Positions 18,736 to 48,117 of a DNA stretch of 64,000 nt are shown here, piece after piece. Under the pieces are notes generated by a model, which was given only the letters and a program-made list of their open reading frames with translations, did not search any database and was not told the DNA's origin. The position numbers were made by a program, and so were the translations under genes. Within the stretch, counting starts at the first letter, position 1. Every line of letters starts with the position of its first letter. The stretch comes from a virus (taxonomy: Duplodnaviria; Caudoviricetes): the IMG/VR virus record IMGVR_UViG_3300046804_003398; one strand, given 5' to 3'.

Positions 18736-19120
18736 TGGTGGACGCGGCGAGAATCGAACTCGCGTCTTTAAGAAGTGATCCATACCAGACTACACGCTTG
18801 TATGATTTGAATTTGATAGGAAACAGAATCTAAATCATCAAAAATCCGTTTCTTAAGATTTACAGAACGGTAGATTGGATGAGCAAATCAATCATTCCAA
18901 TTATAGTTCGATGATAACACCCAACCAACTATCGAACAGTCATTAGTCAAGTGTGCAACCTTTAATTAGGCTGCGAGTGCTGCAACTTCTCCATAAGAGA
19001 AGTCATAGCTAACCACGTTTTCTTCAGCAGTTATGTTTTGATAGACGTTTAAAGAGGCCAACTATCATCCTCTACGTGCCTAGCATGAACGCATCCTTAA
19101 ATCGAAACCTGAACGCGCCC
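18736..19120 (-). ncRNA. ssrA: tmRNA, tag (A)AEENVVSYDFSYGEVAALAA*
   Basis: 5' GGGCGCG pairs with 3' CGCGUCC-ACCA including G3.U70; T-arm GAGUUCGAUUCUC; tag ORF 19028-18966 follows AUAACU and ends ALAA-stop. Confidence 0.95.
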
Positions 19121-19333: not shown

Positions 19334-19407
19334 TGGAGCGGGTAGTGAGAATCGAACTCACTCATAGGCTTTGGAAGAGCTTCAGGCTACCGTTACATCA
19401 TACCCGC
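19334..19407 (-). tRNA. tRNA-Gly (TCC)
   Basis: Canonical cloverleaf, loop CUUCCAA, CCA. Confidence 0.9.
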
Positions 19408-19420
19408 ACTTTAATAAATA

Positions 19421-19648
19421 TTATTCGGTCAACACAAGAACTTCATATTCATAATTGTGATTTTCCTTAAACATATCACAATACTTCTTTGCTGACTTCT
19501 CGGTCAAAAAAACCTTATGAATTGATCGTTCACTGTCACCATTACGGACAACATATACCGTAATTGGCAAGATCTTTTCTTCCTTGATAATTTCACTTGC
19601 AACCAAAATGTTGCCAATCAAAATCAACGATATCAATAGTTTCTTCAT
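19421..19648 (-). CDS. Hypothetical protein with signal peptide-like N-terminus
   Basis: MKKLLISLILIG... Confidence 0.6.
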   Translation of the reverse strand: MKKLLISLILIGNILVASEIIKEEKILPITVYVVRNGDSERSIHKVFLTEKSAKKYCDMFKENHNYEYEVLVLTE

Positions 19649-19692
19649 GTCTAAAGTCTACCACAGATTGTTGTTGTGTCAACTGTTAAAAT

Positions 19693-19816
19693 TGGATGAC
19701 CGTGACTTGCGAATATACGAGGATTTCACTGGGCGTTCCAAATGTCTATCTCGTCAACTTCAGTCTCCTATACCCTCCTATGGGTATCGTGCTATAATTC
19801 TATACACCAACAATCA
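19693..19816 (-). ncRNA. tRNA-like RNA with elongated T-arm region
   Basis: 7-bp UGAUUGU/ACGGUCA stem plus U-CCA end, D-arm GUGU/GCAC, AUACCC/GGGUAU hairpin, long rod in place of the T-arm. Confidence 0.5.
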
Positions 19817-19917
19817 AATTTAAATTCAACCCTATCCTATCTGGAACAGATTCGTCCGGGTCAGACATACAGGGGTGTATCGTGTCCCTCACGCCATGGC
19901 TAAACCACCACAAGATC

Positions 19918-20327
19918 TTTGACACAGCCGTAGCCGCTGTTCTGTTTTATCCCTACATTTATCTCAGACACCTTGGCGGTTTTATGGGCATATTTAACCC
20001 ACAGATTATTAGCCGAACACAGCCGTTGGTTATTGTTTCGGACCTAGCCAAGTTCAAACCTCTACCATTGTCTGGTTGTCCGTTAAAGACAACTGCTCCA
20101 ACCTATCCCTTCAAACGTGCAGCACTACACTCGGGTTATTTAGGATTACTGCTAATATGTGGTGTTTTCGAATTAAGGTTAACCGGACTGCTCCTTGCTT
20201 CCACGGAATTGCAGTCGTTTAATCATTGTGGGCAATATGAAGTTAACTTACATTCTCCCAATCATCTGCTGTGCAGCATCGAACTTCCTCTAGGATATTA
20301 TCCCAGCGTAGGATCGCTTGTGTCAAA
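19918..20327 (-). ncRNA. rnpB: RNase P RNA
   Basis: P1 UUUGACACA/UGUGUCAAA; P2 UCCUAC/GUAGGG; P3 hairpin; CR-I GAGGAAGUUCG; L15-like AAUGGUAG; CR-IV AGAUAAAUG; CR-V AAACAGAACAGCGGCUA; P4 AGUUCG/CGGCU with bulged U. Confidence 0.85.
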
Positions 20328-20330
20328 AAA

Positions 20331-20405
20331 TGGCAGGGGATACCGGTTACGCTCCGATTCTCTCAGATTCAAAGTCTGATTTGCTACTATTACAATCAAT
20401 CCCCA
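20331..20405 (-). tRNA. tRNA-Gln (TTG), non-canonical elbow
   Basis: Loop CUUUGAA; D-loop AAUAGUA; T-loop AGCGUAA. Confidence 0.85.
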
Positions 20406-20414
20406 GTTATAAAA

Positions 20415-20490
20415 TGGTCGGGATGGAGAATTTTGCAATCTCAACCTCCTGTCTCCAAAACAGGCCGTCTACTTTTGACATTACATCCCG
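20415..20490 (-). tRNA. tRNA-Pro (TGG), non-canonical elbow
   Basis: Loop UUUGGAG; D-loop AAAAGUA; T-loop UGCAAAA. Confidence 0.8.
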
Positions 20491-20497
20491 ATAAAAT

Positions 20498-20571
20498 TGG
20501 CAGGGGATAAGGGAATCGAACCCCTACAAGAAGATTCAAAGTCTTCCGCACTACCATTATGCAAATCCCCA
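20498..20571 (-). tRNA. tRNA-Gln (TTG)
   Basis: Canonical GG/UUC elbow, loop CUUUGAA. Confidence 0.9.
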
Positions 20572-20581
20572 GTTCTGAAAT

Positions 20582-20655
20582 TGGAGCGGGTGGAGGGAAT
20601 CGAACCCTCTCATCGTCCTTGGCAAGGATGTAGGCTACCGTTACATCACACCCGC
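20582..20655 (-). tRNA. tRNA-Gly (GCC)
   Basis: Canonical cloverleaf, CCA. Confidence 0.9.
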
Positions 20656-20664
20656 GTTATAAAT

Positions 20665-20740
<76 letters not shown>

Positions 20741-20746
20741 GTAAAG

Positions 20747-20840
20747 TGGCGGAAGGTGAGGGTGCTGCCCCCTCAGTGGTTTTTTAGGCCACGGCAGTTT
20801 AGCAAACTGCTACGACTAACTAACTATTCGTCTACCTTCC
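20747..20840 (-). tRNA. tRNA-Ser (GCT), non-canonical elbow
   Basis: Long variable arm; T-loop GGCAGCA; D-loop contains AAUAG. Confidence 0.85.
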
Positions 20841-20847
20841 ATAAAAA

Positions 20848-20935
20848 TGGCGGAAGCAGTAGGAATCGAACCTACGAGGGTTTTTAGGCCCCAGGCGTTT
20901 TCAAGACGCTTTCCTCGACCTGCCGGACTACTTCC
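20848..20935 (-). tRNA. tRNA-Ser (TGA)
   Basis: Long variable arm, canonical T-loop. Confidence 0.9.
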
Positions 20936-20942
20936 GTAAAAT

Positions 20943-21020
20943 TGGTGGACCAGGTGAGAATCGAACTCACATCAGATTGATTGCAAATCAGTCTCGCTTA
21001 GCCTTAGAACATGCCAGCCC
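20943..21020 (-). tRNA. tRNA-Ala (TGC)
   Basis: G3.U70, loop UUUGCAA. Confidence 0.85.
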
Positions 21021-21027
21021 ATAAAAT

Positions 21028-21112
21028 TGGTAGGTGTAGTAGGATTCGAACCTACAAAGGATATGATATTTTAAGTATCACGGTTGTTCCAGTTTCCCTC
21101 ATCCATACACCC
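21028..21112 (-). tRNA. tRNA-Leu (TAA)
   Basis: Loop CUUAAAA, canonical T-arm. Confidence 0.88.
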
Positions 21113-21119
21113 GTTAAAT

Positions 21120-21197
21120 TGGTAGCTACGACTGGATTCGAACCAGCACTATTCTATTTTTGAGATAGACGACTCCTTCCAGTTGGTCTACGTAGCC
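21120..21197 (-). tRNA. tRNA-Leu (CAA), short variable loop
   Basis: Loop CUCAAAA. Confidence 0.85.
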
Positions 21198-21207
21198 ATT
21201 ATAAATT

Positions 21208-21291
21208 TGGTCGGCATGATAGGACTTGCACCTACACCCCTTTCGGGACGAGCTTCTAAGACTCGCATGGCTTCTATTACATCACATGCCG
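21208..21291 (-). tRNA. tRNA-Leu (TAG), non-canonical elbow
   Basis: Loop CUUAGAA; T-loop UGCAAGU; D-loop AAUAGAA. Confidence 0.85.
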
Positions 21292-21294
21292 AAG

Positions 21295-21372
21295 TGGTGG
21301 TGATAACAGGATTCGAACCTGCACTATTTACTATCTCAAAGTAACGACTCCTTCCAGTTGGTCTATATCACC
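21295..21372 (-). tRNA. tRNA-Leu (GAG), short variable loop
   Basis: Loop UUGAGAU. Confidence 0.85.
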
Positions 21373-21378
21373 GTAAAA

Positions 21379-21456
21379 TGGTCGGAATGACAGGATTTGA
21401 ACCTGCAACTTCTTGCTCCCAAAGCAAGCGCTCTAGCCAAGTTGAGCTACATTCCG
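21379..21456 (-). tRNA. tRNA-Pro (TGG)
   Basis: Canonical, loop UUUGGGA. Confidence 0.9.
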
Positions 21457-21463
21457 ATAAAAG

Positions 21464-21538
21464 TGGTGGACGATGAGGGATTTGAACCCCCGACATTCTC
21501 CGTGTAAAGGAGGTGCTCTTCCACTGAGCTAATCGTCC
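21464..21538 (-). tRNA. tRNA-Val (TAC)
   Basis: Canonical, loop UUUACAC. Confidence 0.9.
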
Positions 21539-23323: not shown

Positions 23324-26300
23324 TTAGATAAAGAACTTCTTATAATCGGTTAGATCATATAGTCCTTCTTTAATTTGATTACCTAGATCATAACTAATAC
23401 CTTTGCTCTTATCATTTTTGTTAGTCTTGATCAATTGAATTGCTTTGTCATAGTCATTTCTACCATCCTTAGCAATCGCATTTAACTTGGTAATCTTATT
23501 AGCAGCACCTTTGACATCAAGTGGTTGTAATCCACTCTTTGTCACAAGATTCCATTTATCACCAAAATATTGATAAACAGCTTTTGGTGTCAATGGTGCT
23601 TCTTCAGGTCCAGCTATGACCAAAGTCTTTTCCTTTGGTTTGAATCCACCTTGTTGTGCTTGTGGAGCAGCTGCACCACCTGGGCCAAGAAGATCCAAAC
23701 CTTGAAGTGCTGCATCAACAGCTTTATTGGTCTTCTTACTACCCTTCTTGTATACCAACACATCGCCAATATCCAAGAACGAGATAATCAATTGTTTCAA
23801 AGACGCTTTATCAAGACTGTCTGGGTTAATTCTTTGAAGAATTGGGCCCAAGTCAATCAACTTAGCAAACATTGCTCTAGCATTTGCAATGTCTGGTCCA
23901 GTCAAGTTACCGGTAGCACCAGAGTTTGGAACAACAGCCTTACCACGGGTTTCCAAATCTTCTGATACTGTGGACCCAATTACTGGAGGAACTGCACCGG
24001 CAGCTGCTCTTTGCATACCGTATACATTGTTTGGGTTCTTTCTATTAAATGCTTGACGAAGTTCAAAAGCAGCTCCAACCAAGTTTGGTATAGAAGCATT
24101 GAACTCACCCAAAAATGTTTGTCTATCTTTGTTTCGTGCCAATAGATCAGCAGCTGCTTCAGCCAATGATGTAAATTGAGGATCTTTTGTTATTTCAGCA
24201 CGAACTGCATTTGGATCTCCAACCTTTTGACGATATTGAACAGAAGCATCACTAATTGCTTTGCTGAAATTGATCAAGAATGTCTTGAGTGTAGCCATAG
24301 CTGCTTTTGCTTCTGGACTATTTGGATTGTCAGAAGCCTTCAACATATTGACCACACGTTGTTGTAGATTTCCAGTAAACAACGGACTTGCTTTCAAAGC
24401 AGTCAAATACTTTGACAAGTTTTTATTTGAATATACTCCACCAACAGTTGGGGTTGGAGTATCACCTTGTTTTGGTGGATCTTTTGGAATAGTCTTAGGA
24501 TCAGTAGGATTTGTTGGGCCTGGATTTGGATTTGTTGGTGTTGGAACTTCGCCTGGTGGAACAACTACTGGATCAGGAGTTGCAGCATTGGACTCTGGTG
24601 TAGCACCATACAACCAATCACGGACTTTCTTTACATAATCATAAACGCCTGGGAATGTCTTATCATACTTCTTCAATGTATCAAGAATATCTTTCTCACT
24701 CTTGAGACCCAAAGAACTTTCCATGTTATTCAAGAACTTCAAATAGTCACTTTCAACTTGTTTGTAGTCCAAACGAGAATTTTTACCACCAACTTCTGGA
24801 CCACCAAACATGAAGTTCTTAGCAGTTGTAAGTGGATTTGCTTCGGTCAATGCAATAGCACCACCCATCAACTCAGCTTTCAACAAATCAAGTTCACTTT
24901 CTTGTAGACCAAACTTCTTCTTCAATAATCCCAAAGCACCCTTACGTGCCAATTGATTTGCTACATTAGGATCTGCCAACATTGTTTGAGCTTCTGGTTG
25001 ACTAATACCAGCTACCCAGTTTTGAACAGCTTGTCTTGCGGCTGGAGCAGTAGCACCTCTTACGTCAGTTGTGCTTGCCAATCTAGCTAAAGAGTCAAGT
25101 TTTGGACGTAGATCTGTCAAAGTTGGTTGAATATCGACACCTGTTACTGGAGGAGCTTCTGGAGGCAAAGTTCCACCTGGTGGAATTGCGTCACCGCCGG
25201 TTGGTGCTGGAGCCACAGCAGGAGGAGGATTTGATACAGAATTATAATTCATCTCTGTATCTGGACCAAATCCCCTATTATTCATGTCTTCAGGAGCTAT
25301 ATATCCAGATTGCCATTGACCTTGAACTGGCGAAGATACAGATCCACCACCATACATACCTTGGTTTGGATCATTTGCGCTGCCTGGAATAATTTTACTA
25401 GTATCAAAACCAGGTTGTTCTGGAGCTGTAGGGACGGGAACAGGTTTTGTTGGAACTGGAAGTGCTGATCCATCACTTGGTCCACTTAACCAGCCTGCCA
25501 ACTTATCATAAAACAATCCTAACAACTTACCAATTGCGATACCAGCACCTGACACCGCAGCTGCTTTTGTTGCTGCTTGTGTTGCTTTTTCACCTTTCAA
25601 CACACCAACCAAAGTTCTTAGAGCTGTGCCGACCAAAAACTTACCTAGAAGTGGAATTCCAAACAAACCTCCACCGGTAGAAAGTGTCAATACGGCGACC
25701 AAACCTCCGACAATCATGTTGGTCAATGTAGGATGTTGACGAGCAAAAATACCAATTTCATCCAATACATTATCTGCACCCTTGACCAAACCCGTTGAAC
25801 GCAATTTATCAATCAATTGTTGAATACGACCCATACCAGCTTGTTGTTCTGCTGGTGTAGCTGGAGCATTTAACTTTGGATTGTTTTGAAGAGCAGCAAA
25901 TCTTTTACCAATCAATGCACCGATTTGGCCAATCTGTGTAGGACTGTTTTTAACATCTTCAGCGGATGGAGCAAATGGACTTGGACCCGCATTAACAATT
26001 TTGTCAGTGTTCTTCTTGAGAGCTGCAAACAAGTTCTGGATTACTTGTGTGTCTTTACCTTGGGTGAACCCTTTACCAAGTGGTGTAGTTAACCATGCTT
26101 TTGTCTTGGCTAAACCACGTTGGAAAATATCTTCCTTTAGAACTGGATGTTCATTGAGATATTCACTCAAAATATCTGCTTCAATCTGTTTAGCAGTTTG
26201 CTCACCCAATTGAATTGCATAATAAAGATTGGACTTTGTATCCAATCCTTCATTCAAGACGGTAAGCTGTGATTTATGTTGGGAATTTACAAACTCGGTG

Positions 26301-26350
26301 ATGAGTTTATGATAAAATTGCTCTTTTGCGATGTTTTTGAATTTGGCCAT
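23324..26350 (-). CDS. Large hypothetical protein, putative virion-internal protein
   Basis: 1008 aa; Pro-rich linkers, a hydrophobic hairpin, many L/I-x-E motifs; TATTTAT upstream. Confidence 0.7.
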   Translation of the reverse strand: MAKFKNIAKEQFYHKLITEFVNSQHKSQLTVLNEGLDTKSNLYYAIQLGEQTAKQIEADILSEYLNEHPVLKEDIFQRGLAKTKAWLTTPLGKGFTQGKDTQVIQNLFAALKKNTDKIVNAGPSPFAPSAEDVKNSPTQIGQIGALIGKRFAALQNNPKLNAPATPAEQQAGMGRIQQLIDKLRSTGLVKGADNVLDEIGIFARQHPTLTNMIVGGLVAVLTLSTGGGLFGIPLLGKFLVGTALRTLVGVLKGEKATQAATKAAAVSGAGIAIGKLLGLFYDKLAGWLSGPSDGSALPVPTKPVPVPTAPEQPGFDTSKIIPGSANDPNQGMYGGGSVSSPVQGQWQSGYIAPEDMNNRGFGPDTEMNYNSVSNPPPAVAPAPTGGDAIPPGGTLPPEAPPVTGVDIQPTLTDLRPKLDSLARLASTTDVRGATAPAARQAVQNWVAGISQPEAQTMLADPNVANQLARKGALGLLKKKFGLQESELDLLKAELMGGAIALTEANPLTTAKNFMFGGPEVGGKNSRLDYKQVESDYLKFLNNMESSLGLKSEKDILDTLKKYDKTFPGVYDYVKKVRDWLYGATPESNAATPDPVVVPPGEVPTPTNPNPGPTNPTDPKTIPKDPPKQGDTPTPTVGGVYSNKNLSKYLTALKASPLFTGNLQQRVVNMLKASDNPNSPEAKAAMATLKTFLINFSKAISDASVQYRQKVGDPNAVRAEITKDPQFTSLAEAAADLLARNKDRQTFLGEFNASIPNLVGAAFELRQAFNRKNPNNVYGMQRAAAGAVPPVIGSTVSEDLETRGKAVVPNSGATGNLTGPDIANARAMFAKLIDLGPILQRINPDSLDKASLKQLIISFLDIGDVLVYKKGSKKTNKAVDAALQGLDLLGPGGAAAPQAQQGGFKPKEKTLVIAGPEEAPLTPKAVYQYFGDKWNLVTKSGLQPLDVKGAANKITKLNAIAKDGRNDYDKAIQLIKTNKNDKSKGISYDLGNQIKEGLYDLTDYKKFFI

Positions 26351-26469
26351 AATCTCATATAAATATAAATGAGATTATGATTATATCCATGAATTTTTTA
26401 TAAGAGTATTGTTGGATTTCACATTAATGTTCCATATAAAGTCTATCAACAAATATCTTATTAAGTGTT

Positions 26470-27335
26470 TGGCGTGAGATTACCGCCTTCACTGTTGACC
26501 TTCGGTTAGATTATACCCATCTTGCGGACAGGCTTCCTAACTTATCCACGATCACGACTTGCGCCTATAATCGTATCCAACATGACTGCCTTTTTAGGGT
26601 TGTGGCTTATCAACCTTAACCTAGAACTATTCAACCTTCATCCATCCGTCTGCCTTCGACAGCAGTTAAGTCTTGCGGACACCGTTCAGACTCCGATTAA
26701 CAACTAGTGTCTTGCGGACATTTCGTTGTCTGTGTTATCTTTCGACCACAGAGTTAAGTCACTTTCATCCTAGACAAACAACGACTTTGCGTTTTTGTAT
26801 ATATGAACTGGATTTGAACCAGCAACACATAGCTTTACATAGCTATTACTCTACCATTGAGTTATCATGCACCTAACAATGACGTGCGTTGTTTGTCGTT
26901 TCATATCCTTTTGGGATACAATATGCGACACGCCATTTGTGTTTCTCTTGCGGATACTTCACCGATTTTCAAGATCAAGTCCCTTGGTTGGCCTTTGGTC
27001 CTCTTTCTATCAATCTACATACGAGCATTTGATTGCGGTCTCACACCCGTATCTTTGGCTTAAATCTTACTCTTGGATGTTTTGCTGTGAGCAGTGGTCG
27101 GCGGCACCGTTACCGAACATATGCCAGTGTTACCCACACATGTTCTTTTTCTCACCATCGTCGGATATACTTCCACCTTTTGGATGAAAGTCACAGACTT
27201 TGCCATTTGTTTGAGTGTCCTAGTTGCCCAGGCGAGGGTCCGTTAGGGGACTACCTCTTTCATGAGTATTACTACTCACTATCTTATATGGAGGTCAAAC
27301 CCCCCAAAATCTTTTTACTTCAAAGAACTTACTGT
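26470..27335 (-). ncRNA. Large structured ncRNA candidate (GOLLD-like) with embedded tRNA-like element; ends approximate
   Basis: Promoter TTGACA-16-TAAGAT at 27369-27342; no coherent ORF; helices 26761-26770/27182-27191 and 26773-26783/26887-26897; four UCCGCAAG motifs; tRNA-like module 26801-26870. Confidence 0.65.
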
Positions 27336-27470
27336 CCAATCATCTTATCACCGTTTTTCGGTTTGTCAACAACTTTTCGATTGTTTCAGTTCGTTGTTGA
27401 ATGACGAACTTAAGTATGTATTCACTATACACTACAAATCCGATTCGTCAAGCCCCAAAACAAAACTTTT

Positions 27471-28691
27471 TTACTGAATGTTTCGCATCACCACATTTTG
27501 AATCTTTGCTATGTTTTCCTTGGACAAAAAGTCAGACAAATTTGGCAACGTATAAACGTGGTCATAGTATCGTTGCATGGTCGAACGTATTTCACCTGTA
27601 TCAATGTGGTCATGATCCCAACAGTCCAATCCCAACTTGATCAAAACCAACAACTTATAATTTTCATAATTTTTTAAAAGCATGTCTAGTCTATCCAATT
27701 CCTCACATATTTGCTCAAAAGGTATTTTGTAACAAAAATTGAACTGACGATAGTTTCCAGAAATGTGATAGCATACTGGATTAGTTTTTATCAACGCATC
27801 AACTTGTTCATCAAGATTCATATGTTGATGTATGTAAAGTTGCGACATCATTTCGGGTTTTGTTGACAACACAAACTCTTTGTCTCTACCACAATGTTCA
27901 CGGGTCATTTTTGAAAATAACCAATAGACTTCATCTGTAGCAAGATAATCAGTTACATAGTTTATGAAGTTAAAATTTATGCCTGGAACATATTGTATGC
28001 TGCCAAATATGTTTCCATATTGATGAATATATGCCTTGAACATATTAATGTTAAGATATACCCAATCCATATTATTTTTTAGTTTTGGATTTGAGTCATA
28101 TTCTCCAGAAATTAAACTTGCTTGTAGATATGATATATCAATATTTGAAAAGTATTCATTCATTGATGATTCATATTGTTCAATTAAATAACGTGTGACA
28201 TTCAAATCACAAAAAGAAAACCAACCAAGTGTATGAGATTTTTCTCCAAATGATGGTCTGGGTGTAACTTGACCGCCATACAAATATTCTCCAGACTCTA
28301 TCTTCTTGAAACAATCGTCAATATAATTTTTGTCCAAAATGAAAAGATCATCGTCTACATAAAATAACGTGGCATCTTTGTGATGCATACAAGCATATTT
28401 GGTTCCGTTAAACAACAAATGTGCGTGTGTTGACAAAGTATGTCGGTCGCTCGAGTCGTTTGCGTAGATAAAATGTAACTTGTTGCTGTTGGTTTTTTTG
28501 TTATAATGATCACACAATTTGGTGTTTGCTTCGATCAATTTATCTTGAAGATCTAGTAATTCTCCTCCAGCAACAATGTATACCTTATCAACAATATCCA
28601 TCCAATACTTCTCATAATACTTGATCCAAACATTAATAGCTAATGGATTGCCATAACTTGATACAATTACTACTCTATCTTTGTTTTTCAT
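27471..28691 (-). CDS. Glycosyltransferase-like protein (GT-A, DxD)
   Basis: TLFYVDDDLFI motif; similar layout to the genes at 37551 and 39728; ATG 28691 preferred. Confidence 0.6.
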   Translation of the reverse strand: MKNKDRVVIVSSYGNPLAINVWIKYYEKYWMDIVDKVYIVAGGELLDLQDKLIEANTKLCDHYNKKTNSNKLHFIYANDSSDRHTLSTHAHLLFNGTKYACMHHKDATLFYVDDDLFILDKNYIDDCFKKIESGEYLYGGQVTPRPSFGEKSHTLGWFSFCDLNVTRYLIEQYESSMNEYFSNIDISYLQASLISGEYDSNPKLKNNMDWVYLNINMFKAYIHQYGNIFGSIQYVPGINFNFINYVTDYLATDEVYWLFSKMTREHCGRDKEFVLSTKPEMMSQLYIHQHMNLDEQVDALIKTNPVCYHISGNYRQFNFCYKIPFEQICEELDRLDMLLKNYENYKLLVLIKLGLDCWDHDHIDTGEIRSTMQRYYDHVYTLPNLSDFLSKENIAKIQNVVMRNIQ

Positions 28692-28863
28692 CGTGCGTTG
28701 TATTATAACTATTAACCCAGCCAACTCTGTGTTTACCAATCCAATCTACCAATGCTTTTTCAAAACCAATATCGTGGTGATTTTTTTCACTTTCAAACCA
28801 TTTATGACGGTCTATTTCTTTCTTCATATCAATAAACATACTATATAATGATTTTTTTTCCAT
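28675..28863 (-). CDS. Small DUF4032-like protein
   Basis: EIDRHKWFESEKNHHDIGFEKALVDWIGKHR; ATG 28863 preferred over the longer track ORF. Confidence 0.65.
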   Translation of the reverse strand: MEKKSLYSMFIDMKKEIDRHKWFESEKNHHDIGFEKALVDWIGKHRVGWVNSYNTTHDEKQR

Positions 28864-47586: not shown

Positions 47587-48117
47587 TCAAGCCCACTCGG
47601 TGAACATGTTGGTCTGACCACTCCAAGGATAAGCCCAGCTGTAGCTGGTCATCTTGAGACTCACACTGGAACCACATCGGTTGATGCGTTTGGTGATGAG
47701 TTTGTCACCGATCTTGGTGATATCGGGAGTGCACTCACCTTGCATGTGACCAGTGTAAGTGCGGTTCTGACCCAGAGGACTGACGATGACCGATGCGTTC
47801 TTGACCTTGCGGACGACGTAGTAGTCGATGTTGGTTTGGTCATAGCCCCAACTACACACAAAGATGTCACCCACATTGACCTTGGGCATGGGTAGTTCCA
47901 CCTTGGTGACATCGGTTGCGTATGCATTGACGGTGTAGTAGGAATAGGGCAGACCACGGTCAACTGCGTTACAGAATAGGACACCACGACGAGTAGCCTT
48001 CCACACACGGAGTTGAGTGCCAGCGGGAACAACCACGGGGTTGGAGGATGAACCGACACGGATGTCCTTGTTGGTGGTAACGATGTCGTTCTTGCGGATC
48101 TTAGAGTTAGCGTTCAT
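47587..48117 (-). CDS. Hypothetical phage protein
   Basis: GDIFVCSWGYDQTNIDYYVV; own promoter. Confidence 0.8.
   Translation of the reverse strand: MNANSKIRKNDIVTTNKDIRVGSSSNPVVVPAGTQLRVWKATRRGVLFCNAVDRGLPYSYYTVNAYATDVTKVELPMPKVNVGDIFVCSWGYDQTNIDYYVVRKVKNASVIVSPLGQNRTYTGHMQGECTPDITKIGDKLITKRINRCGSSVSLKMTSYSWAYPWSGQTNMFTEWA

Follow-up and report, generated by a model that had tools for sequence, protein, structure and literature searches.

GOLLD RNAs are among the largest and most elaborate RNAs of bacteria and phages, and the cage into which they assemble has been solved. The family itself, its placement in phage tRNA arrays, its cage structure and the tRNAs or pseudo-tRNAs embedded in it have all been published already. 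As cited in two reports, the 833 nt GOLLD env-38 forms a 14-mer cage (PDB 9MEE) and the 700 nt GOLLD of Streptococcus agalactiae a 12-mer (PDB 9L0R) (PMC12286853, PMC12990946). The linker faces the inside of these cages and sometimes contains a tRNA (PMC12286853). In print, the family is described as combining a conserved 3′ domain with a divergent 5′ one (PMC12286853; PMC12990946). The less conserved 5′ domain is structured and has about 400 nt, with published helices P1-P13. Within the GOLLD of M. aubagnense a pseudo-tRNA is predicted, of which no separate expression was detected (PMC6582537), and a Mycolicibacterium GOLLD carries a tRNA-Phe in J13/15, for which there is the published idea of ‘inhibited storage’ (PMC12990946). 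ROOL (RF03087), also a large phage-associated RNA found near tRNA islands, builds a cage purely of RNA that has its linker inside (PMC12286853).

The window analysed here, a stretch of 64,000 nucleotides from a virus of the Caudoviricetes (IMG/VR record IMGVR_UViG_3300046804_003398), carries a further GOLLD-family giant phage RNA, which is a well-supported yet ordinary example of the family. Membership, proposed in a preliminary description of the locus made from its sequence, is directly observed in the Rfam covariance-model scan, where positions 1-416 of the 416 in model RF02032 are matched at 26938-26471 on the minus strand with 206 bits, against a gathering score of 150 (E 9.7e-57). Among the four families suggested for comparison (GOLLD, ROOL, OLE and HEARO) GOLLD alone was matched. 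ROOL, OLE, HEARO and all other large-RNA families went unmatched, both in the window as a whole at the gathering score and within 26000-27800 at the looser threshold of E up to 1, and none of the membership tests that were run came out against GOLLD. The setting is likewise the one known for GOLLD, the RNA being located in a phage, between two tRNA arrays, and having a tRNA-like element in its variable linker. The coordinates of its features are collected in the table.

Features of the GOLLD locus in the window, in order of position along the minus strand
Feature	Position	Strand	Basis or remark
Upstream promoter-like site P1, TTGACG-16-TATAGT	27424..27451	-	consensus scan, 10/12; predicted start near 27417
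Putative promoter P2 of the preliminary description, TTGACA-16-TG-n-TAAGAT	27342..27369	-	consensus scan; predicted start near 27335
GOLLD 5′ domain, variable, of clade-specific type	26939..27335	-	fold and HMM; 397 nt
5′-domain hairpin with GNRA loop (GAGUA-GUAA-UACUC)	27262..27279	-	covariation
5′-domain composite hairpin with conserved GU.UGAG...CAAGGGC motif	27017..27054	-	covariation
Conserved GOLLD 3′ domain, RF02032 model 1-416	26471..26938	-	Rfam scan
Linker-closing helix, 5′ arm	26887..26897	-	complementarity and comparison
tRNA-shaped module in the GOLLD linker	26797..26872	-	Rfam tRNA, ARAGORN
Linker-closing helix, 3′ arm	26773..26783	-	last 4 nt overlap the Rfam pseudoknot arm
Rfam long-range pseudoknot, 5′ arm UGUCUAGGAU, then universal GAAAG	26767..26776	-	cmscan alignment
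Rfam pseudoknot, 3′ arm GUUCUAGGUU	26618..26627	-	cmscan alignment
3′ tail past the Rfam model	26410..26470	-	RNA-library contigs

On the same strand as the GOLLD gene, Rfam and ARAGORN place 30 ordinary tRNA genes and a tmRNA, in arrays at 19334-21538 and 29896-34999, and one further tRNA-like match that falls inside the GOLLD match. The phage-encoded tmRNA (18736-19120, minus strand; Rfam 119.8 bits; tag peptide AEENVVSYDFSYGEVAALAA) is situated at the edge of a tRNA array. The ORFs that flank the RNA, 23324-26350 (1008 aa) and 27471-28739 (422 aa), both on the minus strand, belong to no Pfam or PHROG family, and phage tail-fibre-like proteins are encoded elsewhere in the window. At 26356-26391 on the minus strand an AT-rich inverted repeat, ATAATCTCAT ... 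ATGAGATTAT, overlaps the start of the 1008-aa ORF, both at its ribosome-binding region and at its start codon. The sequence is present in river metagenome and metatranscriptome runs. The nearest record (G001), a viral contig of IMG/VR, is near-identical to it in the GOLLD, with three substitutions and one 14-nt indel between the two, and so yields no covariation. A blastn search with the locus gave no match in the GenBank phage collection and, against the collected GOLLD loci, only near-identical copies; the more distant GOLLD relatives were reached by nhmmer. In all seven relatives that were scanned with Rfam, the GOLLD adjoins tRNA genes.

Two perfect helices had been pointed out in the RNA, and these fare differently on comparison. 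The first, of 11 bp, stands: GACAAACAACG (26897-26887) complements CGUUGUUUGUC (26783-26773) at every position, far beyond what chance would give. When 50 distinct GOLLD loci taken from viral contigs were compared, the equivalent arms formed at least six contiguous pairs in 48, using 28 different arm sequences (e.g. GAGGAAG/CUUCCUC, GGCAAAC/GUUUGCC and CUCGAAG/CUUCGAG), and the 11-bp helix is therefore the family-wide linker-closing helix, its conservation being a matter of direct observation. It extends over 11 bp in the window against the usual 7-8, and its last four pairs compete with the long-range pseudoknot of the Rfam model (26776-26767 / 26627-26618), which forms 9 of its 10 pairs in the cmscan alignment. 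For the second helix, of 10 bp, the exact complementarity of ACUUUCAUCC (27191-27182) and GGAUGAAAGU (26770-26761) holds but its conservation and significance are unsupported, since 6% of shuffles reach it and no counterpart better than chance is found in seven relatives. This helix is probably a coincidence rather than a conserved feature. Its 5′ arm can instead enter a local hairpin (27191-27183 / 27177-27169), which occurs in one relative (L070) as well; for this hairpin, and for most helices of the minimum free energy (MFE) fold of the 5′ domain, an HMM alignment of 28 sequences favours neither verdict. The MFE fold of the whole RNA, a single-sequence prediction, draws both the 11-bp and the 10-bp helix.

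Four copies of TCCGCAAG had also been reported, at 26521, 26672, 26711 and 26947, and all are present. The whole window contains six copies against 0.93 expected; the remaining two, at 47806 and 48091, both lie inside a coding ORF and are unrelated. The description of these elements as GCAA tetraloops has to be amended, as for two of the four Rfam draws a 4-bp stem capped by a loop of 5 nt, CGCAA. In the Rfam alignment these two belong to family-conserved hairpins, and a third copy lies in an insertion near the 3′ end.

The tRNA-like element enclosed by the closing helix is recovered by the Rfam tRNA model RF00005 with 50.5 bits (against 29) at 26871-26799, and its D-loop (AAUGGUA), T-loop (UUCAAAU), anticodon loop of 8 nt and absent CCA are all as first described. 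It folds as a cloverleaf with a canonical elbow, the nucleotides of the D- and T-loops being canonical in the Rfam alignment. Its non-canonical features are seen directly: the anticodon loop UAUGUAAA has 8 nt, or 6 if the flanking U and A extend the stem by a sixth pair; ARAGORN returns the module as tRNA-??? with a 2-base anticodon; the acceptor stem has a C3.A70 mismatch, the discriminator is U, and CCA, which is encoded by 30 of the 30 free tRNAs of the window, is lacking. A working decoder would be expected to have a loop of seven nucleotides, with U33 and an anticodon of three bases, and the module does not.

The linkers of other GOLLD loci provide the comparison. At the same site, relatives carry tRNAs of Ser-GCU, Gln-UUG, Cys-GCA, Lys-CUU and Thr-UGU-like type. 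Several have flawed acceptor stems, and one (L072) has none at all. When sequences were scanned for the pattern of a T-loop with the conserved AACGCAAAG after it, 119 matches resulted, of which a GOLLD HMM filter kept 47 as further loci; many of the matches outside the 47 probably arose by chance (T-loop plus 9-mer). Among 52 distinct linker modules, 10 are unrecognised by ARAGORN and three have an abnormal loop size. A pyrimidine occupies position 37 in 5 of 39, one has a ‘stop’ anticodon, and at least 16 anticodons are represented, most of them with U36. CCA is encoded by only 4 of 42 linker modules, compared with 500 of 554 free tRNAs at the same loci (Fisher p = 5e-30). Together with the anticodon anomalies, this contrast sets the linker modules apart as a class from the ordinary tRNA genes of these phages, and the rarity of CCA in the one and its near constancy in the other argues that the insert is a built-in part of the RNA rather than a passenger gene. 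The hypotheses as to what the cage encloses are narrowed accordingly by the CCA contrast. Four relatives whose linker tRNAs do encode CCA (L070, L074, L075 and L087; three are drawn as ordinary cloverleaves) indicate that release of a working tRNA may be an ancestral or a parallel use. The module of the window is one of the more aberrant.

The anticodon loops of the linker modules (52, from loci L069-L194) also follow a pattern. All have U33, and about three quarters retain U36-A37-A38, whereas there is free variation at 34 and 35, so that most of the ‘anticodons’ (Lys, Asn, Thr, Arg-UCU, Ile, Ser-GCU) are one change apart. On these sequences, a single ancestral module seems to have given rise to the linker modules, selection at 34-35 being relaxed or diversifying. 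At GOLLD loci without a linker tRNA (L004, L019, L052, L054 and others), a tRNA-Met gene is very often located directly upstream, and a tRNA-Met gene upstream of GOLLD has likewise been reported for env-38.

Its defects and the CCA contrast make it most likely that the module of the window remains tethered, as a tRNA mimic within the GOLLD chain that does not decode, and is no precursor of a working tRNA, although a fraction of the molecules could be cut at the module and the host CCA-adding enzyme could supply it with CCA. The main alternative is that the linker element is a genuine tRNA gene whose precursor is the GOLLD transcript. The tRNA would then be excised by RNase P together with a 3′ nuclease, the host would add CCA, and decoding would proceed by a Tyr-like GUA anticodon or, by way of the expanded loop, through four-base reading or frameshifting; the closing helix, at 11 bp longer than usual, would hold the two halves of the GOLLD together after excision. 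The score of the module does lie within the 34-73 bits spanned by the tRNAs of the window, its elbow is that of a tRNA, relatives have CCA-encoding tRNAs at the same site that are mostly ordinary cloverleaves, and tRNA-Tyr is missing from the window’s 30 tRNAs (ARAGORN). Against this, decoding tRNAs nearly universally have an anticodon loop of 7 nt, and neither form of the loop here complies: the 8-nt reading puts A at the second position, the usual place of U33, and with U33 in place one extra U is left on the 5′ side. The short variable arm and U73 are out of keeping with a bacterial tRNA-Tyr. The acceptor mismatch also speaks against a working tRNA, as does the missing CCA amid free tRNAs that all encode it, a pattern that recurs across loci, and contigs from RNA libraries pass through the module unbroken. 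Northern blots of a mycobacterial GOLLD revealed no separate pseudo-tRNA (PMC6582537). The tRNA-gene alternative is thus unlikely, and is left with some weight because the linker tRNAs of some relatives look proper and bear CCA.

The module is part of an RNA that occurs in river RNA libraries as one unbroken stretch. The stretch is present in seven river metatranscriptome runs, and in four of these it is covered by single RNA contigs of 946-1522 nt with 0-1 differences, which span 26410-26428 to 27368-27400 and have no break or joint at the tRNA module; this unbroken presence in RNA libraries is likewise directly observed. Contig depth, a rough hint, is 492-1412 on the GOLLD and 3-4.4 on contigs of the flanking ORFs in the same runs. 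The ends of the contigs agree to within about 20 nt. Such contigs cannot prove the ends, strand, level or partial processing of an RNA, so that depth and ends are weak evidence, and the fact that they left 27420-28025 and parts of the downstream ORF uncovered is no sign of silence there. Since the whole RNA occurs as single, unbroken contigs of high depth in river libraries, natural material for end-mapping exists.

For the 5′ end, a promoter had been proposed at 27369-27342 (TTGACA-16-TAAGAT), and the consensus scan bears this out, adding a TG before the -10 (P2). The scan finds a second site further upstream (P1) to be as good a consensus match, the promoter function of both being putative. 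In two relatives (L074 and L075), a TTGACA directly upstream of their GOLLD aligns with the -35 of P2, and this comparison supports P2. Two of the contigs stop at 27368-27373, where a 14-nt indel distinguishes strains and probably broke the assembly, and the other two extend to 27389 and 27400 before running into Illumina adapter. As these positions are upstream of the start predicted for P2, some RNA would begin upstream of P2, and the contigs suggest an abundant RNA of ~1 kb with such a start, consistent with P1. At the other side, the contigs end at 26410, 26417 and 26428, with Illumina adapter joined at 26410 in one run (X7), a weak hint. The limits of 27335 and 26470 originally given for the RNA are therefore probably too narrow on both sides, with contigs reaching 27389-27400 and 26410-26428. 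For three relatives (L069, L071 and L072), the cleavage site of a hammerhead-like core falls near 27318 in the alignment, which places the functional 5′ end probably close to 27335-27318, whatever the primary start.

Two features of this upstream region merit description in their own right. The indel, at 27372 and just upstream of the P2 -35, resembles a tandem duplication (TCGAAAAGAAAGTT) and differs between strains: the 14-nt insert TCGAAAAGAAAGTT is found in G001 and in two river RNA-library contigs and is absent from the window. The second is a type I hammerhead-like core (CUGAUGA ... GAAAC ... GUC or GUA) located immediately 5′ of the GOLLD at L069:1059-1112, with equivalents in L071 and L072, for which Rfam Hammerhead_1 gives 26 bits, below its gathering score of 34 (E 1.6e-4 for a search of 221 nt). 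By cleaving itself, this core would fix the GOLLD 5′ end in those relatives; the motif is absent from the window. Among the papers searched, those that mention both hammerhead and GOLLD appear to draw no link between the two.

The lack of a coherent ORF, another of the original observations, holds among eight homologues, in which no frame is conserved and the stop-to-stop frames differ in place and length. Could the structured region serve chiefly as a long 5′ leader for control of the 1008-aa gene downstream (23324-26350)? A scan found no intrinsic terminator after the GOLLD, between 26471 and the start codon at 26350, and one contig, from a variant strain in run X3, runs on into the ORF. However, the three other contigs stop at 26410-26428, one of them joined to adapter, relatives have tRNA genes in place of the 1008-aa ORF after the RNA, and the GOLLD family is known as a stand-alone RNA. 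A leader function of this kind is highly improbable.

The Rfam model covers the GOLLD 3′ domain only, and the 5′ domain was therefore characterised by its fold and by an HMM. As a single sequence it folds with -113 kcal/mol (z = -3.1). An HMM built from eight homologues matches 22 of 37 independent linker-tRNA GOLLD loci at the expected distance; neither it nor two clade motifs match in ~45 GOLLD loci that lack a linker tRNA. Collection of homologues, as had been recommended, brought out covariation in two 5′-domain hairpins as well as in the linker-closing helix. In 28 sequences, the hairpin at 27279-27262 has 87% standard pairs, with all seven of its pairs covarying (34% for shifted partners), and that at 27054-27017 has 75%, with nine covarying (42% for shifted partners); these conserved helices, too, are direct observations. 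RNAalifold drew only 10 pairs on a MAFFT alignment of the eight 5′ domains, a low yield attributed to a sequence-based alignment that is too poor in this domain. The other option of the preliminary description, a new giant non-coding RNA class that merely resembles GOLLD, could appeal to this 5′ half, which has no Rfam model and a sequence type absent from the ~45 other loci, but is refuted by a 3′ half that fits RF02032 over its entire length, well above the curated cut-off, and by the variability of the 5′ domain that has been described for GOLLD itself (PMC12286853; PMC12990946), so that it is almost certainly wrong.

Taken as a whole, the locus is very probably the GOLLD gene of an uncultured, tRNA-rich river or freshwater phage, whose RNA would be caged and would hold a tethered, non-decoding module. 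The RNA consists of three parts: a clade-specific 5′ domain (27335-26939), a universal 3′ domain (26938-26471) and a variable linker. The linker separates the core of the 3′ domain from its first hairpin, is closed by 26897-26887/26783-26773, and is filled in the present lineage by the tRNA-shaped module (26872-26797). Transcription of the minus strand would start at one or both of the sigma-70-like promoters (near 27417 and 27335) and end at ~26410-26470, to give an RNA of ~0.87-1.0 kb. By homology to the two solved GOLLDs, 12 to 14 copies of this RNA may assemble by themselves into a closed cage, their linkers pointing to the inside, an analogy limited by the 5′ domain, which provides the cap and stoichiometry in the solved structures and is of a different sequence type here. 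The interior of such a cage would hold 12-14 tRNA-shaped modules.

As to its role, we speculate that the RNA may handle or bait tRNA-binding, tRNA-recognising or translation factors during lytic growth. A more specific and rather doubtful proposal is that, in the clade sharing this 5′ domain, the linker module is a deliberately non-maturable tRNA mimic, acting as a caged bait or sink for host enzymes that recognise the tRNA shape or the anticodon loop. The traits that would suit such a mimic are that the elbow, U33 and mostly U36-A37 are kept, CCA is lost, 34-35 drift and the rules for decoders are often broken; the 12-14 caged copies might then bait, for example, the anticodon nucleases of anti-phage defence. 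If true, this would give GOLLD a function. As one more member of the family, the locus alone leaves the picture unchanged. What it contributes is the CCA contrast and the river RNA-library evidence, which are useful additions and no new kind of thing.

Compared with the described systems, the RNA of the window is similar to ROOL in being a large phage RNA near tRNAs, but it belongs to a different family, the window having no sequence or structure match to ROOL. It is closest to the solved GOLLDs, with which it shares a full-model 3′ domain with pseudoknot and linker-closing helix, a comparable size (~0.87-1.0 kb here), a phage-borne location beside tRNA arrays and, some 62-77 nt into the 3′ domain, a variable linker in the same place. 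It differs from these in its linker, where a tRNA-shaped module takes the place of a short disordered stretch, and in having an extra CGCAA-containing hairpin inserted near the 3′ end; moreover, cage oligomers have been seen for the solved GOLLDs, whereas the RNA of the window is known from its sequence and from library contigs. From the ~45 GOLLDs without a linker tRNA it is distinguished by a 5′ domain of another sequence type. In common with the mycobacterial GOLLDs, it has a tRNA-shaped element in the linker and lies inside a large tRNA gene cluster, although its carrier is an uncultured river phage and the flaws of its module are different ones, namely the size of the anticodon loop, expanded or contracted, and the absence of CCA. 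That linker modules stand apart from ordinary tRNAs, the one of the window being among the more aberrant, agrees with the pseudo-tRNA of M. aubagnense (PMC6582537) and with the idea of ‘inhibited storage’ (PMC12990946).
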